A DNA stretch of 53,426 nucleotides from the IMG/VR virus record IMGVR_UViG_2541047798_000005. One strand, given 5' to 3'. Of the stretch, positions 29,873-44,679 are shown in pieces. The DNA comes from a virus. Taxonomy: Duplodnaviria; Heunggongvirae; Uroviricota; Caudoviricetes. How positions within the stretch are numbered: position 1 is the first letter of the stretch; each line of letters opens with the position of its first letter. The position numbers were made by a program, and so were the translations under genes. The notes beneath the pieces were generated by a model. The model saw only the letters and a list, made by a program, of their open reading frames with translations. It did not search any database and had not been told where the DNA came from.

Positions 29873-29889
29873 ACTTCGAAAAATTTTCG
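29873..29889. promoter_or_regulatory. Perfect 17-bp palindrome TTCGAAAAATTTTCGAA between terminase and portal genes
   Basis: Exact inverted symmetry; function unknown. Confidence 0.3.
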
Positions 29890-30003
29890 AAGATGAACAA
29901 GAATAATTCTCAATTGGCTACATAAAATCTGTCTCACAATCCCCCACAAGTTTTTCTATTTTTCGCGTAGCAACGCGTAAACATGTATTCAGGAGTAAAC
30001 ATT

Positions 30004-39339: not shown

Positions 39340-41682
39340 ATGGCTACCAGTGTAGGTACAATTTATTACGAAGTTGATGCGAAAACTGGTCAACTTCTCG
39401 TTGCACAACGACAGGCAGACCAGGCCTTTGATCGTATAGAGCGCGGCGCAAAACAGGCTGACCGCCAGGTAAACACCCTGAAAACATCCATCAAGGCACT
39501 GACCAGGGTTATCCATCTGCTAATTGCTGCGGAGGCTGTGCGCCAATTTATGGATATGGCGGAGCAAGCAAAAATGCTTCGCGTAAAAATCAAAATGCTT
39601 ACGGGCGATGCGGAGTCCGCCGGACGGGTTTTCGACGGCCTGAAAGCAATATCCAGGGAGACGGGGCAGAGCCTGAAAGATACTGGCGAATTATGGCAAG
39701 GCCTGGCTATCTCACTAAAAAACACCTCCGCTACGGAAGGGCAATTGCTTAACCTGGTTGGCACTATTCAGAAAATGGGTGCATTAGGCGGCGCGTCAGC
39801 GGAACAGATGTCTAACTCAATGCGTCAATTCCGTCAGTCTATCGACGGCGGTGTTCTTCGTGCCGAAGAATTTAACAGCCTGCTTGAAAATACGCCGACC
39901 ATCGTACAAACAATGGCCCGCCATATGGGATTATCAATGGGCCAGTTCCGCGCCGAAATGCTGGACGGCAAGATCACGGCTGAAAGGATGGTTAACGCAA
40001 TACAGGCGGCTACGCAGGAAACAAACGATAAGTTTGCTCAGTTGCCGCGCACATCCGGCATGGCTATCAATGAGCTTAAAGTAGAAATTATGGGCCTTGT
40101 TGAGCAGTTGGATGATCTTTTTGGCGTGTCAGATGGCGTTGTTTCAGCTATCGACTTGATCACGAAAGGCGTTAAAGGGCTTGGCGATGGCGCTAAATTC
40201 GCTAAAACCTGCTTCGACACACTCAAAACGGCTGGTAGCGAATTTATCGACATGTTTGATGATGTGGCTGTTAAGGCTGGAGAGGTGGCAGAGAAGATCA
40301 TCGCAATGGTGACGCCAATCAAGGCGCTAATGGATGGCTATAAATGGATGAAGGAGGTAGTAGGAGAGCAAACCGACGAATATAACAGCAACTACGAGAA
40401 GAAATACGGGAAGACCGTTGGCAAGGTCATGCAACTACAGGATGATCTGACCGCAGCAATCCAGGCTACAGAAGAAGCAAGGAAAAATGAACAGAATGCT
40501 GCCAATGACGGAGCGATTACCGGATTCGACAAGCCAGTAGACAAGCCGAAAAAACAGAAAAAAGAGAAGAAATCGGAAGCTGATCGGCTTGGTGACAAAG
40601 GTATAAGCGTTTCTGATCAGTACAACAAAGACGCCGCCGCCATGCGCAAAGCGTTGGAGAACGGCAAGGCCATTGATGCTGCATTTGCCCAGGGTAAAAT
40701 CACGCTCCTTGAGTACCGCGCCGCGCAAAAAGGGATCGGCAAGGAACTGAAAGAAGAATTAGCACAAATTCCGGTAGATGAATTGCGTGATAAATGGTCA
40801 CAAATAGTAAGCCCGATGGATCAGCTAAAAGGCGAAGTTGACCCCATCCAGCAGGCGCAAAATGAATGGGCCATCCGTAAGCAAATGCTTATAGACCTGG
40901 GCGCTACTGAAGCGCAACAGAAACAGGAATTGTTAGCCTATGAGCAACAGATCCGCGATCTGAAATGGGAACAATGGCAGGCGCAAAGCGACACAAACGG
41001 CCTTATCGGTGATTGTGTTAATGGCCTTAAAGGCGGAATGAGTAATGCGCTTGTTGGCCTGTTAAACGGCACTCAATCATTGAGTGATGTTTTTGCTAAC
41101 TTAGGAAGCAATATACTCGGCAATATCGGTAACAGACTCTCAGACATAGCTGCAAACTGGATAGCAGATCAGATCATGATGGAGACACAAAGCAAGGCCA
41201 CGCAAACAAGTACAACAGCAAGCGCGGTAGCAGCTCAGGGAAGCATTGCTGCGGCGGCGGCCCCAGCAGCGGCGGCAACTGCGGCGTCAACTGGCGGTAG
41301 CTGGGCGGCGGCTGGTTCGGCGGCGCTCACTGCGATCATGTCGCTGGCTACGTCAATTTTCGGCGGCGGTCGCTTTAATGGTGGTAGCGTCATTGGTGGT
41401 AATATGTACCGCGTAGGGGAACACAACAGGCCGGAGCTATTCCAGACATCTAACGGCAATCAATATATGATCCCTGGCGAGAACGGCAGAGTTATTCCGG
41501 GCCGTGATATTGGCGGCGGTGGCGGTATTAGTATGCCTGTCAGTATCAGCATTCAGACCACGAACGGATTCAGCGACGAAGACAGCCGCAGACTTGAATT
41601 AACAATGGAACGTGTAGCCATGAAAATGATAACAAGGGAATCTCAAAGACCAGGCGGAATGTTGCAACCTCGCCGCAAATAA
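39340..41682 (+). CDS. H: Tail tape measure protein
   Basis: 780 aa; extended alpha-helical region and Gly/Ala-rich segment; followed by lambda-type M, L, K, I, J. Confidence 0.85.
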   Translation: MATSVGTIYYEVDAKTGQLLVAQRQADQAFDRIERGAKQADRQVNTLKTSIKALTRVIHLLIAAEAVRQFMDMAEQAKMLRVKIKMLTGDAESAGRVFDGLKAISRETGQSLKDTGELWQGLAISLKNTSATEGQLLNLVGTIQKMGALGGASAEQMSNSMRQFRQSIDGGVLRAEEFNSLLENTPTIVQTMARHMGLSMGQFRAEMLDGKITAERMVNAIQAATQETNDKFAQLPRTSGMAINELKVEIMGLVEQLDDLFGVSDGVVSAIDLITKGVKGLGDGAKFAKTCFDTLKTAGSEFIDMFDDVAVKAGEVAEKIIAMVTPIKALMDGYKWMKEVVGEQTDEYNSNYEKKYGKTVGKVMQLQDDLTAAIQATEEARKNEQNAANDGAITGFDKPVDKPKKQKKEKKSEADRLGDKGISVSDQYNKDAAAMRKALENGKAIDAAFAQGKITLLEYRAAQKGIGKELKEELAQIPVDELRDKWSQIVSPMDQLKGEVDPIQQAQNEWAIRKQMLIDLGATEAQQKQELLAYEQQIRDLKWEQWQAQSDTNGLIGDCVNGLKGGMSNALVGLLNGTQSLSDVFANLGSNILGNIGNRLSDIAANWIADQIMMETQSKATQTSTTASAVAAQGSIAAAAAPAAAATAASTGGSWAAAGSAALTAIMSLATSIFGGGRFNGGSVIGGNMYRVGEHNRPELFQTSNGNQYMIPGENGRVIPGRDIGGGGGISMPVSISIQTTNGFSDEDSRRLELTMERVAMKMITRESQRPGGMLQPRRK

Positions 41683-41686
41683 ACTA

Positions 41687-41716
41687 AACCCCGGTGCAAT
41701 GCCGGGGTTATTTTTC
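41687..41716 (+). terminator. Rho-independent terminator after tape measure gene
   Basis: CCCCGG-tgcaatg-CCGGGG hairpin plus T-run; near-identical to the terminator at 35100. Confidence 0.75.
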
Positions 41717-41768
41717 GTATTTATAAACGACCATTCCGCGCGATATATCCCCTTTCGAATATCTCGAC

Positions 41769-42023
41769 TCACTTATGAGTGCCTTTCACGCCACATAACT
41801 TGTTATAGGCATGGTGCTCAACAATTAACCAAACCTTCAAATCTTCGCTAAACAGCCTCCAATCAAGATTGATATCCATTTTGTATCCGTAACCGTCGCG
41901 TAACTTTTTGGGGTAAACTTCTTTTCTCAGAAAGGCTTTAAGTAATTCCTTACCTTTCTTGATGATCCGGTCCTGTGCGTTTTTCTGTGCTTTCAGATTT
42001 CTGTCAATCGCTACCAGTTTCAT
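41769..42023 (-). CDS. Small basic protein, candidate toxin-like component of a two-gene cassette
   Basis: 84 aa; 17 nt downstream of a 51-aa ORF on the same strand; family not confidently assigned. Confidence 0.35.
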   Translation of the reverse strand: MKLVAIDRNLKAQKNAQDRIIKKGKELLKAFLRKEVYPKKLRDGYGYKMDINLDWRLFSEDLKVWLIVEHHAYNKLCGVKGTHK

Positions 42024-42040
42024 AACTCACCCCATCATCC

Positions 42041-42196
42041 TTAGTTAAGTGCCTTCAGGAAGAAGTCCCGGTATTCATCTTCTTTCGCATTCATCATGAA
42101 TTGACCGTATTTGAATGCGTCGTCGAAACCCTTAACGATTGCTATTTCCACTTGTTCGAATGCGTTATTTAGCATTACTACTACATAGCGTTTCAT
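42041..42196 (-). CDS. Small protein (51 aa), candidate antitoxin-like partner
   Basis: Not in ORF track; ATG with GGAGG RBS; candidate promoter TTCACA-17-TATATA upstream on minus strand. Confidence 0.35.
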   Translation of the reverse strand: MKRYVVVMLNNAFEQVEIAIVKGFDDAFKYGQFMMNAKEDEYRDFFLKALN

Positions 42197-42236
42197 TTTG
42201 GGCCTCCTTCGTTGGTACTGCTTTCTTCTTGCTTTC

Positions 42237-42304
42237 TATATACATCTTGTTGCGTGCTATGTGAAGCCATTTTGTAAACTAGCTATAATCATTGTGACAA
42301 TGAT
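42237..42304. promoter_or_regulatory. Control region: minus-strand promoter (TTCACA-17-TATATA), CCATTTTGTAAAC motif, TATAAT box and perfect palindrome ATCATTGTgACAATGAT (42288-42304)
   Basis: Direct reading; palindrome has 8-bp arms around a single central base. Confidence 0.45.
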
Positions 42305-42363
42305 CTTATTTTTCGCGTAGAAGCGCGTAAAGATATATACAAAATGTAACTTGTGGGGGTTTT

Positions 42364-42717
42364 ATGCCGGAAGTGTTCAGATGGACGCCGCAAAGAAGCT
42401 ACAGCGTGACCAGGAAGCCAGACGTATCTGTTGTTAAGCTGGGCGATGGTTATGAGCAAAGACAGGTAAAAGGTATCAATCCATTGCTTGATAGCTACAC
42501 CCTGGTGTTTAAAGGCAGTAGCGCCGGATGTGGTGATGGTGGAAACGTAGCAATCCAGGCGGAAGCATTCTTGAGGGCGCGCGGCGCGGTCGAGGCTTTT
42601 TACTGGTCGCCGTCAATGGATAACGTGCAAAGGCTTTTTGTCTGTCGGCAATGGAGCATGACTAAAGACGGGCCTTTGTACACGCTAAACGCAACGTTTG
42701 AGCAAGTTGTTGGCTAA
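42364..42717 (+). CDS. M: Minor tail protein M
   Basis: 117 aa; similarity to lambda gpM as recalled (...FRW.....LGDGY.QR...G.N.....Y...F......FEQVV). Confidence 0.8.
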   Translation: MPEVFRWTPQRSYSVTRKPDVSVVKLGDGYEQRQVKGINPLLDSYTLVFKGSSAGCGDGGNVAIQAEAFLRARGAVEAFYWSPSMDNVQRLFVCRQWSMTKDGPLYTLNATFEQVVG

Positions 42718-42914
42718 TGGGGGTTGTTATGTACGGGACTTGTGTAGTTGACAAAACTTACGCTTTTACATTGTTTGACGACTATGAGATCAACGACCTT
42801 ACTGTAAAAGCTGACAACGGCGATATATGGTATCTTCACGACGTTGGTGATGGGTACGTTGGGTGTAGATCCCGGGAAGGGAAGGAGGTTTTATTTTTGG
42901 TTGATGGCGTATAA
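42717..42914 (+). CDS. Hypothetical small protein (moron, between M and L)
   Basis: 65 aa; followed by terminator. Confidence 0.4.
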   Translation: MGVVMYGTCVVDKTYAFTLFDDYEINDLTVKADNGDIWYLHDVGDGYVGCRSREGKEVLFLVDGV

Positions 42915-42918
42915 ACAC

Positions 42919-42947
42919 GACCCCGCGCGAAGCGGGGTTATTTTTAT
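42919..42947 (+). terminator. Rho-independent terminator
   Basis: CCCCGC-gcgaa-GCGGGG hairpin followed by TTATTTTTA. Confidence 0.7.
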
Positions 42948-43070
42948 TCTATTTCCATTAATGCTATATTTTCTGCTATCGTTTTCCAGTCCAGATCTAC
43001 AGCATGAACGCCAAATACTATCAACCCCATTATTATTAGCGCCAAAACTTCTATTTTTATAATCAGTCAC

Positions 43071-43319
43071 CTATAAGTTATCACGCAGATAATTAACGCC
43101 CTTATCAGTGACGAATGAATGGTTAACCTGGTTTTCATCCGTCATGATGATGAATAACTTTTCATGTAGGTATTTCGCTTTCGGGTACAGCGTTAAACAG
43201 ACCTGGTACAGTATCCCGCGCTCAATCAGCAAATCAATAAATTCGTGTTCATGATAACCGATGAGGCGGGCGGCCTGTTTCAACGTGTACACATAATCAC
43301 CGTGATTGCGCCGCCCCAT
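43071..43319 (-). CDS. Hypothetical protein (moron cassette gene 3)
   Basis: 82 aa; opposite strand to tail operon. Confidence 0.45.
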   Translation of the reverse strand: MGRRNHGDYVYTLKQAARLIGYHEHEFIDLLIERGILYQVCLTLYPKAKYLHEKLFIIMTDENQVNHSFVTDKGVNYLRDNL

Positions 43320-43328
43320 GTTGCCGCC

Positions 43329-43676
43329 TTATTTATCGAATGCTGAAAGGTTATCGATACAGAAATCTTTCGCCGCTTTTTCGTATTCGCGTTTTGCTTC
43401 TGGATCGTCAGCCGGGAAACCTTTTGCGTGTATTTCACCAGGGCAAGACTGGTCCATAGAATCTGCATAATAAGCAGTGAAGCTACCATTAATATCTTTC
43501 GGGTTCATATCTTCCACCTCATCAACTATCTGTACCGGATTAGCAGCATATTTCACTGGATGGCCTAAACTACATTCAAGAATCCTGCCTTCTTCCAGGG
43601 CTACTTCTTCGCTATCAAATAATCCGAAACACTCCTTGCTACCACTTAACCACACATCAAGACTGTATTTTTTCAT
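43329..43676 (-). CDS. Hypothetical protein (moron cassette gene 2)
   Basis: 115 aa from ATG at 43676 with GAGG RBS. Confidence 0.45.
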   Translation of the reverse strand: MKKYSLDVWLSGSKECFGLFDSEEVALEEGRILECSLGHPVKYAANPVQIVDEVEDMNPKDINGSFTAYYADSMDQSCPGEIHAKGFPADDPEAKREYEKAAKDFCIDNLSAFDK

Positions 43677-43845
43677 TTTTGTTAGCCTCATATTTGACAG
43701 GTTCGATCTGGTATCCCAAAAGGCGGTCATCCTCAGCAAGTAAAAGCGCGTCAACCAATGCTTCACCCTCGTCGTCATACAGGGCGATAACCTTTTCCCT
43801 ACCGTCTGTCATGAATACCGTCAACTTCCATAGCTTTTCAGTCAT
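43657..43845 (-). CDS. Hypothetical small acidic protein (moron cassette gene 1)
   Basis: 62 aa from ATG at 43845 with GGAGG RBS; overlaps gene 2 start by 20 nt. Confidence 0.4.
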   Translation of the reverse strand: MTEKLWKLTVFMTDGREKVIALYDDEGEALVDALLLAEDDRLLGYQIEPVKYEANKNEKIQS

Positions 43846-43974
43846 AACGCACCTCCGCGCCATTTTGTTAACTATGCTTCCGTTTGAGTAAAATATACAT
43901 ATTGTAAAAACCGCGATCAATCCATTTTGGTATGATTTAGCGTGACGCAGATCACAGAATGACAAGGTGAGAAA

Positions 43975-44679
43975 ATGCGCAATATTCCGAGAGAAATGAT
44001 TATTGATTCCGTCGATGCCGGAGTCGGCGCGGTAATTGACTTGTTTGAATTAGACCTCACGCCCCTGGGTGGCGAGGTTATCCGCTTCCATTCCGGCGTG
44101 AATGGCTATTACGGCCCGGTTATCTGGAAGGGGGTGGCTTACAACAGCTACCCTATCGAGGCCACTGGCTTCGAAATGAAAAACGAGGGTGTCTATTCAC
44201 GCCCGCAAATGGTTGTAGCCAACATTGGCGGCCTAATCACCGGGATGAATAACGATTTCAACGACCTGCGAGGAATGAAAGTTACACGCCGCCAGGTGGA
44301 AGTAAAATACCTGGACGCCATCAACTTCCCCAACGGCAACCCGGATGCAGATCCGTCTATCGAGGCGGTGTCTTTTTACGTCGTTGAGGCGATGAGCGAA
44401 GAAACAGCCGACCAGGTGCAATATGAGCTGTCAACGCCAATTGATGCTGACAAGGCGGTTATCCCAGGGCGCACAATCCTTGCTGACGTTTGCCAATGGC
44501 AATATCGCGGCGACGGTTGCGGATACAGTGGCGGCCCTGTAGCTACTGATAAAGACGAATCGACCAGCGATCCAAAGCTGGATAAATGCAGCCACCGCCT
44601 GAGCGGTTGCCGTTTACGTTTCCCGCGCCCGAATCCGTTACCAATTTCATGTTTCCCAGGATCGAGCAAGGTGGGTTGA
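43975..44679 (+). CDS. L: Minor tail protein L
   Basis: 234 aa; similarity to lambda gpL as recalled (...DLTPLGGEV..F......Y..YPI...GFE.......RP...V.N......GM......L.G..V.RR.V....LDA.NF.NGN..ADP...). Confidence 0.85.
   Translation: MRNIPREMIIDSVDAGVGAVIDLFELDLTPLGGEVIRFHSGVNGYYGPVIWKGVAYNSYPIEATGFEMKNEGVYSRPQMVVANIGGLITGMNNDFNDLRGMKVTRRQVEVKYLDAINFPNGNPDADPSIEAVSFYVVEAMSEETADQVQYELSTPIDADKAVIPGRTILADVCQWQYRGDGCGYSGGPVATDKDESTSDPKLDKCSHRLSGCRLRFPRPNPLPISCFPGSSKVG

Follow-up and report, generated by a model that had tools for sequence, protein, structure and literature searches.

A minus-strand gene pair in the tail-gene block of mEp021-like coliphages joins a predicted RelE/ParE-superfamily protein to a lineage-specific acidic mini-protein

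The DNA analysed here, which we refer to throughout as the window, is a stretch of 53,426 nucleotides (IMG/VR record IMGVR_UViG_2541047798_000005) that, as judged by its nearest matches in the mEp021 group, represents a temperate coliphage or prophage of the mEp021-like kind (mEpimmI group). The segment 41600-42400 matches seven phage records (mEp021, mEp554, mEp010, mEp044, mEp013, mEp515 and MagusPhagus) as well as 32 of 5,426 complete E. coli genomes, ten of the latter being at least 99% identical and every match being chromosomal. Within this segment, inside the tail-gene block and antisense to the late genes, lies a cassette of two small genes encoding proteins of 51 and 84 amino acids (aa), which we call A51 and T84. 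A preliminary description had placed these two minus-strand open reading frames 17 nt apart between the tape-measure gene and M, and its coordinates for them are exact. The features of the region are as follows, with the coordinates given as positions in the window:

39340-41682, plus strand: tape-measure gene, the upstream flank of the cassette.
41687-41709, both strands: terminator-like hairpin of the bidirectional intrinsic type (AACCCCGG...CCGGGGTT), common to the tape-measure gene (plus strand) and the cassette (minus strand).
41769-42023, minus strand: T84, 84-aa ParE_like protein (Pfam PF24732, phrog_1525) with a predicted RelE/ParE-superfamily fold.
42026-42033, minus strand: Shine-Dalgarno-like GGGGTGAG for T84, read from the sequence, inside the 17-nt spacer 42024-42040.
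42041-42196, minus strand: A51, 51-aa protein (phrog_29810) with a predicted β-β-α-β fold.
42203-42209, minus strand: Shine-Dalgarno sequence AAGGAGG for A51, conserved in the alignment of 12 loci.
42237-42265, minus strand: candidate sigma-70 promoter of the cassette, TTCACA (42265-42260), 17 nt, TATATA (42242-42237).
42284-42289, plus strand: invariant TATAAT box facing M; its best -35 is GTGAAG (3/6).
42288-42304: perfect 8+1+8 palindrome ATCATTGTGACAATGAT, exact and unique in the window.
42308-42331, plus strand: 24-nt block ATTTTTCGCGTAGAAGCGCGTAAA, 100% invariant in 12 related loci.
42364-42717, plus strand: M (Pfam Phage_min_tail, E 1e-27).
42717-42914, plus strand: 65-aa open reading frame directly after M (phrog_3249, function unknown).
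42919-42939: second terminator, hairpin-like, 3' of the 65-aa open reading frame.
43071-43965, minus strand: second minus-strand cassette, between M/gp70 and L.

The hairpin at 41687-41709, detected on both strands by a terminator scan, closes the A51-T84 cassette, and a terminator is annotated at the equivalent place in the mEp021, mEp554 and mEp010 records. The stretch between T84 and this tape-measure terminator is a gene insertion hot spot among the relatives: mEp021 carries two zinc-ribbon proteins there, mEp515 an HNH endonuclease, and mEp554, mEp010 and MagusPhagus open reading frames of 30-58 aa. The window represents the minimal version, with only 59 nt from the T84 stop codon to the terminator. 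On the other side of the cassette, the 65-aa open reading frame that follows M is kept and annotated in relatives (e.g. as mEp021_70), and is followed by a bidirectional terminator. The second minus-strand cassette is kept in every relative examined, its middle genes being variable. In the window it encodes three proteins: one of 62 aa (43657-43845, phrog_29559), one of 115 aa (43329-43676, phrog_38567) and, resembling KilAC/ANT, one of 82 aa (43071-43319; Pfam ANT, E 1e-6). The first of these shows weak similarity to the N-terminus of the second (35% over 52 aa). Past this second cassette the gene order is L, K, I, J.

Both A51 and T84 evolve under purifying selection and are therefore not chance open reading frames: across 11 loci, with dS of 0.8-1.3, mean dN/dS is 0.11 for T84 and 0.03 for A51, which makes the latter extremely conserved. 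The two products carry opposite charges, T84 being basic (pI 9.9, 20 Lys+Arg) and A51 acidic (pI 5.1). Public gene calls for A51 are often longer, 63-89 aa (proteins P0052-P0101), using an upstream start that is in frame in some relatives. These longer calls, those of 68-76 aa among them, are 5' over-extensions: in the window the corresponding ATG precedes the real start by 49 nt, and is thus out of frame, and a start giving 51 aa is favoured by the strong ribosome-binding site AAGGAGG.

T84 matches the Pfam family PF24732 (ParE_like) with 45.3 bits (cut-off 24.4; E 9e-12), over profile positions 2-67 of 67, and phrog_1525 (function unknown) with E 9e-22; eight more T84 relatives match PF24732 as well. 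In RefSeq/PGAP and UniRef the protein goes by the name of ‘ParE family toxin-like protein’, and its toxin-like identity is in this sense already part of public annotation. In the literature on mEp021 gp67/gp68, PF24732 and YafQ-like phage toxins we found nothing on A51 or T84. An AlphaFold2 model of T84 built with 16 homologues (pLDDT 87) consists of the elements β-β-α-β-β-β-α and, as judged by its structural matches, conforms to the RelE/ParE fold, a compact α/β arrangement in which one or more N-terminal helices pack on an antiparallel sheet. The best Foldseek matches of the model are YoeB, YafQ, HP0894, RelK, ParE2 and HigB; its structural matches are RelE/ParE-superfamily toxins only, with weak fold scores. 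At the level of sequence, searches of PDB chains with T84 as a single sequence and as a profile (A1/A5) gave no meaningful match, the T84 profile did not align significantly with an approximate E. coli YoeB sequence by hhalign, NCBIfam gave no match, PADLOC gave none at E up to 1, and none of our sequence searches revealed similarity to a characterised toxin. Taken together, the family profile and the model identify T84 as a predicted member of a phage-borne branch of the RelE/ParE superfamily (PF24732). The guess made for T84 in the preliminary description, namely a type II toxin to be sought among RelE/ParE and similar families, thus holds at the level of the family, though not as the specific toxin-antitoxin (TA) model; the same description could assign neither protein to a known family by eye.

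In an alignment of 15 family members, whose identity falls as low as 28%, two residues of T84 never vary (R56 and H70), and three more (K40, Y73 and N74) are conserved to at least 90%. The key residues of RelE are R61, R81 and Y87 and those of YoeB R65, H83 and Y84, and an Arg/His/Tyr pattern of this kind is typical of the RNase branch of the superfamily, not of ParE. Since the conserved Arg, His and Tyr of T84 resemble those of RelE and YoeB, we infer that T84 belongs with the mRNA endonucleases rather than with the gyrase poisons. By analogy, the most likely activity of T84 is that of a ribosome-associated mRNA endonuclease like RelE, YoeB or YafQ, not that of a ParE-type gyrase poison, with R56 and H70 as putative catalytic residues by virtue of their position. 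Alternatively, T84 could be a catalytically inert RelE-fold protein that binds RNA, the ribosome or another protein and has no toxin-like activity, as might be suggested by the weak fold scores, by the lack of detectable sequence similarity to characterised toxins and by a cultured lysogen that tolerates T84 without A51 (see below). However, the invariance of R56 and H70 and the near-invariance of K40, Y73 and N74 across members that are 28-37% identical fit an active site better than a scaffold, and we consider an inert T84 highly improbable.

A51 is a different case. Its homologues, all of them from mEp021-like phages and prophages, show 76-100% identity; a scan of GTDB species-representative genomes with both A51 and T84 gave no match. 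Apart from its own PHROG (phrog_29810), A51 has no family match: none was found in Pfam, NCBIfam or PADLOC (E up to 1), nor among PDB sequences, be it with the single sequence or with a profile, and a check against the profiles of antitoxin families, a role for which the TA-like layout had made A51 a candidate, yielded none that it matches. Of five AlphaFold models one is confident (pLDDT 90.7), the others scoring 60-75, and the predicted fold gives generic split β-α-β matches only, with no antitoxin or DNA-binding domain among them. We also considered A51 as a paralogue of the 62-aa and 115-aa proteins that lead the second minus-strand cassette, or of the 125-aa protein encoded upstream of the T84 homologue in phage Sortsne; both ideas were rejected, as neither hhalign nor BLASTP gave significant results. 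A51 is thus a lineage-specific acidic mini-protein and not a DNA-binding autoregulator.

How tightly are the two genes linked? Of the 47 IMG/VR loci found with T84, 44 have A51 upstream of it at a distance of 17-24 nt, and a search with A51 alone returns the same 44 contigs. This co-occurrence says little, as almost all loci of this kind in the mEp021-like group have T84. There are also natural variants. Intact T84 is found without A51 in E. coli UMNK88 (NC_017641.1; L114), a cultured ETEC strain, as well as in the viral contigs L036 and L039, with UMNK88 and L039 being 100% identical over 422 nt. In all three the layout is M, the same 167-nt intergenic leader and then directly T84 with its own ribosome-binding site. 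The T84 of these A51-less variants retains every conserved residue; between L036 and L039 it differs with pN of 0.015 and pS of 0.141, which indicates that T84 is still under selection in the absence of A51, and the UMNK88 protein is about 96% identical to its A51-linked counterpart in STEC308. Furthermore, in E. coli MFDS1019527 (L012) a 1-nt deletion causes a frameshift at codon 5 of A51 while T84 is intact, although this deletion could be a sequencing error or could be bypassed by translation restart at Met8. The reverse situation is seen in the prophage of E. coli Ecol_244 (L115), where A51 is intact and T84 is truncated to a 54-aa fragment; public data contain several more truncated T84 fragments, 47-61 aa long (P0033-P0042). 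Finally, the haplotypes of the two genes reassort freely: each of the three T84 types is found with either A51 haplotype, and MagusPhagus combines an identical A51 with a T84 that is only 67% identical.

These variants bear directly on the reading of the cassette as a canonical type II TA module, in which A51 would be a labile antitoxin that neutralises T84 and, alone or in complex with it, represses transcription at the palindrome, the module stabilising the prophage or aborting superinfection. The layout is as one would expect: the genes, acidic then basic, are adjacent and co-oriented with 17 nt between them and a ribosome-binding site for each, and lie between one candidate promoter and one terminator. 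Membership of T84 in ParE_like and the adjoining A51 in 44 of 47 loci point the same way, and the Ecol_244 prophage, with A51 kept and T84 decayed, looks as expected for TA erosion. Toxin families are also known to swap antitoxin partners. Against the module stands the occurrence of every A51 haplotype with each of the three T84 types, together with the divergent T84 of MagusPhagus. Also against the canonical module, in which an intact toxin could not be kept without its antitoxin, are the variants: UMNK88, L036 and L039 have an intact, selected T84 and no A51 gene, and MFDS1019527 has an intact T84 behind the frameshifted A51. In addition, A51 has no match in Pfam, NCBIfam, PADLOC or PDB sequences, and its predicted fold is neither that of an antitoxin nor that of a DNA-binding protein, be it of the RHH, HTH, AbrB or Phd/YefM type. 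Neither protein matches a defence-system model in PADLOC.

The intergenic region between A51 and M offers a second line of evidence. Its mean pairwise identity is 88%, far above the level allowed by the synonymous divergence of the flanking genes, and it must therefore be functionally constrained. The sigma70 promoter suggested for the cassette, TTCACA-17-TATATA, is present, but matches the consensus at only 8 of 12 positions, lacks the -7 T, and was missed by a consensus promoter scan, which reported none in the intergenic region on either strand. Nevertheless, the pattern TTCAC[A/T/G]-17-TATA[T/C]A is kept in all 38 scorable loci with the exact 17-nt spacing and 19 different spacers, and is found in the A51-less variants too, where the spacer is unrelated. 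Conservation of the hexamers and their distance across so many spacers is the pattern expected of a real promoter, and we regard this element as a weak but conserved candidate promoter of the cassette that may be in use. Other minus-strand candidates (TTTACG-17-TAAGAT, TTTACA...) were discarded as, judged by eye, they are not conserved or have no -10.

The palindrome fares differently. While it is indeed exact and unique in the window, which holds 8 distinct perfect palindromes with 8-nt arms as compared to about 3.3 in shuffled sequences, it is not conserved as one would expect of an operator: the perfect form is present in just 9 of 38 related loci, the others keeping 4-7 of the 8 arm pairs, and no other part of the intergenic region, which is very conserved elsewhere, varies as much as the patch that holds it. 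It adjoins the TATAAT box, which is present as described but lies on the plus strand and points towards M, not towards the cassette, and it does not cover the -10 or -35 of the cassette promoter. A search of the window for further copies of the palindrome or of its half-sites, such as would accompany a phage-repressor operator, found none beyond chance. Thus, neither a strict requirement for the antitoxin nor palindrome-based autoregulation is supported, and we consider the canonical module distinctly improbable, while a looser, optional modulatory role for A51 is possible.

Much of the intergenic conservation probably serves the late genes of the plus strand, that is, the expression of M. The motif underlying the invariant 24-nt block, ATTTTTCGCGTAG(NAN)CGCGTAAA, occurs in exactly two copies in the window, at 29958-29981 and at 42308-42331 (both on the plus strand), which precede the likely portal start (30003) and the M start (42364), respectively; no match occurred in 100 shuffles. 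It can form a modest, small RNA hairpin and, given the second copy before the portal gene, probably belongs to the late operon of the plus strand and not to the cassette. Upstream of the portal copy, 19 nt after the stop codon of the terminase large-subunit gene, lies an AT-rich perfect palindrome, CTTCGAAAAATTTTCGAAG (29874-29892). An Rfam scan of 41400-44200 gave a chance snoRNA match only, far below the threshold.

Homologues of T84 outside the mEp021-like group provide a third perspective. An exhaustive phmmer search with T84 returned 7 cluster representatives only, to which a word-index profile search added little. PF24732/phrog_1525 members are present in the virulent siphophages Sortsne, sortsyn and Kc237 and in the jumbo phages PBECO4, 121Q, RaK2 and K64-1. 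The K64-1 member is annotated as a ‘YafQ-like ribonuclease toxin’ and that of Serratia phage OS31 as ‘HigB-like’; remote homologues from metagenomes occur in runs of small phage genes. The upstream neighbours of the family members differ (125-aa, 118-131-aa, ParB-like and 38-90-aa proteins), and among those examined none matches an antitoxin family. In Sortsne, Kc237 and sortsyn (L015, L018 and L022) the PF24732 gene is part of a conserved trio just upstream of the holin and endolysin genes, consisting of a gene for a protein of about 125 aa that overlaps the ParE_like gene by 4 nt, the ParE_like gene itself and a gene for a protein of about 100 aa; neither of the two neighbours matches a known family.

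A family that is widespread in virulent phages without a recognisable antitoxin is a further argument against the canonical TA module, and raises the alternative that T84 is an infection-phase phage effector (for example an RNase that shuts off the host, processes transcripts or counters defences) rather than a toxin held in check in lysogens, with A51 being an unrelated accessory gene that shares the hot spot. The varied and antitoxin-free neighbourhoods in virulent siphophages, jumbo phages and OS31, the metagenomic homologues amid small phage genes, the solitary T84 of UMNK88, L036 and L039, the free reassortment of A51 and T84, and the gain and loss of genes at the locus all speak for such a role. 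However, independent units inside the late operon, known as morons, are expressed apart from late lytic transcription, and the antisense orientation of the cassette, with its own candidate promoter and terminator, is typical of such independent expression. Moreover, the very strong conservation of A51 and its fixed spacing of 17-24 nt to T84 suggest that the two genes are co-expressed. An infection-phase effector next to an unrelated A51 is therefore unlikely in our view, if less so than the canonical module.

The reading we prefer, to which we give about an even chance, is a composite one: the cassette would be a moron-type accessory unit in which T84 is a RelE/YoeB/YafQ-like RNase and A51 a lineage-specific, dispensable companion that perhaps tempers it. 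In line with such a unit are a terminator-like hairpin, a candidate promoter with conserved hexamers and spacing although with a weak consensus, and variable gene content downstream (HNH endonuclease, zinc-ribbon proteins, small open reading frames). The cassette would be transcribed, presumably in lysogens, from the weak conserved sigma-70-like promoter (42265-42237, minus strand) against the late operon, and the transcript would end at the bidirectional terminator common to the tape-measure gene. T84 would be the constant cargo, a ribosome-associated mRNA endonuclease of a phage-specific family, and promoter-proximal A51 its optional modulator, which probably acts on T84, perhaps by binding and dampening it, yet is dispensable. 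As A51 is dispensable and not a DNA-binding autoregulator, the unit is TA-like in its layout (a small acidic gene followed by a basic toxin-like gene), as the preliminary description had it, but is not a canonical self-regulated addiction module.

A broader proposal, possible but somewhat doubtful, extends this to the family as a whole: PF24732 may be a phage-specific clade of RelE-fold RNases deployed by temperate and virulent phages alike without an obligatory antitoxin, serving as offensive or regulatory nucleases (host shut-off, superinfection exclusion, counter-defence) rather than as addiction toxins, with A51 as an optional modulator of a new fold that arose in mEp021-like phages alone. 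Should T84 prove to be an active RNase of the RelE type, tolerated by lysogens in the absence of a partner, phages would be using a toxin fold outside TA logic; phrog_1525/PF24732, spread over coliphages, Klebsiella jumbo phages and others and currently labelled ‘unknown’, would gain a function, and A51 might then represent a new small inhibitor fold. Otherwise, the cassette simply adds another accessory moron to a coliphage group that is prevalent in the gut. In either case, the label ‘ParE family toxin-like protein’ should not count as evidence for a working TA module.

Among known systems, the mRNA interferases RelE, YoeB, YafQ and HigB resemble T84 most: it shares with them its basic character and its size of about 84 aa, they provide the best structural matches of its model, and the predicted succession of N-terminal strand or hairpin, helix, three-stranded sheet and short C-terminal helix is theirs as well. 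Much as in RelE and YoeB, T84 has a conserved Arg in its central strand, and its His and Tyr are placed where the last strand ends and in the C-terminal helix. T84 differs from these toxins in having one long helix in place of the usual helical hairpin and in lacking a partner of the YefM, RelB, DinJ or HigA type, as well as in belonging to a phage-borne, often solo family to which no similarity was found at the sequence level. The ParE gyrase poisons (ParDE, and PaaA2-ParE2 of E. coli O157 prophages) are more distant: ParE structures rank below mRNA interferases as matches for T84, PaaA2 is disordered whereas A51 is predicted to fold (β-β-α-β), and a PaaR-like regulator is absent next to the A51-T84 cassette. 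In its architecture, which is well known, the cassette resembles the morons of HK97/HK022-type phages: it is a small unit in the tail-gene block, antisense to the late genes, with its own candidate promoter and terminator, and its gene content differs between otherwise collinear relatives. It departs from them in one respect: T84 is nearly universal in the mEp021-like group rather than sporadic.
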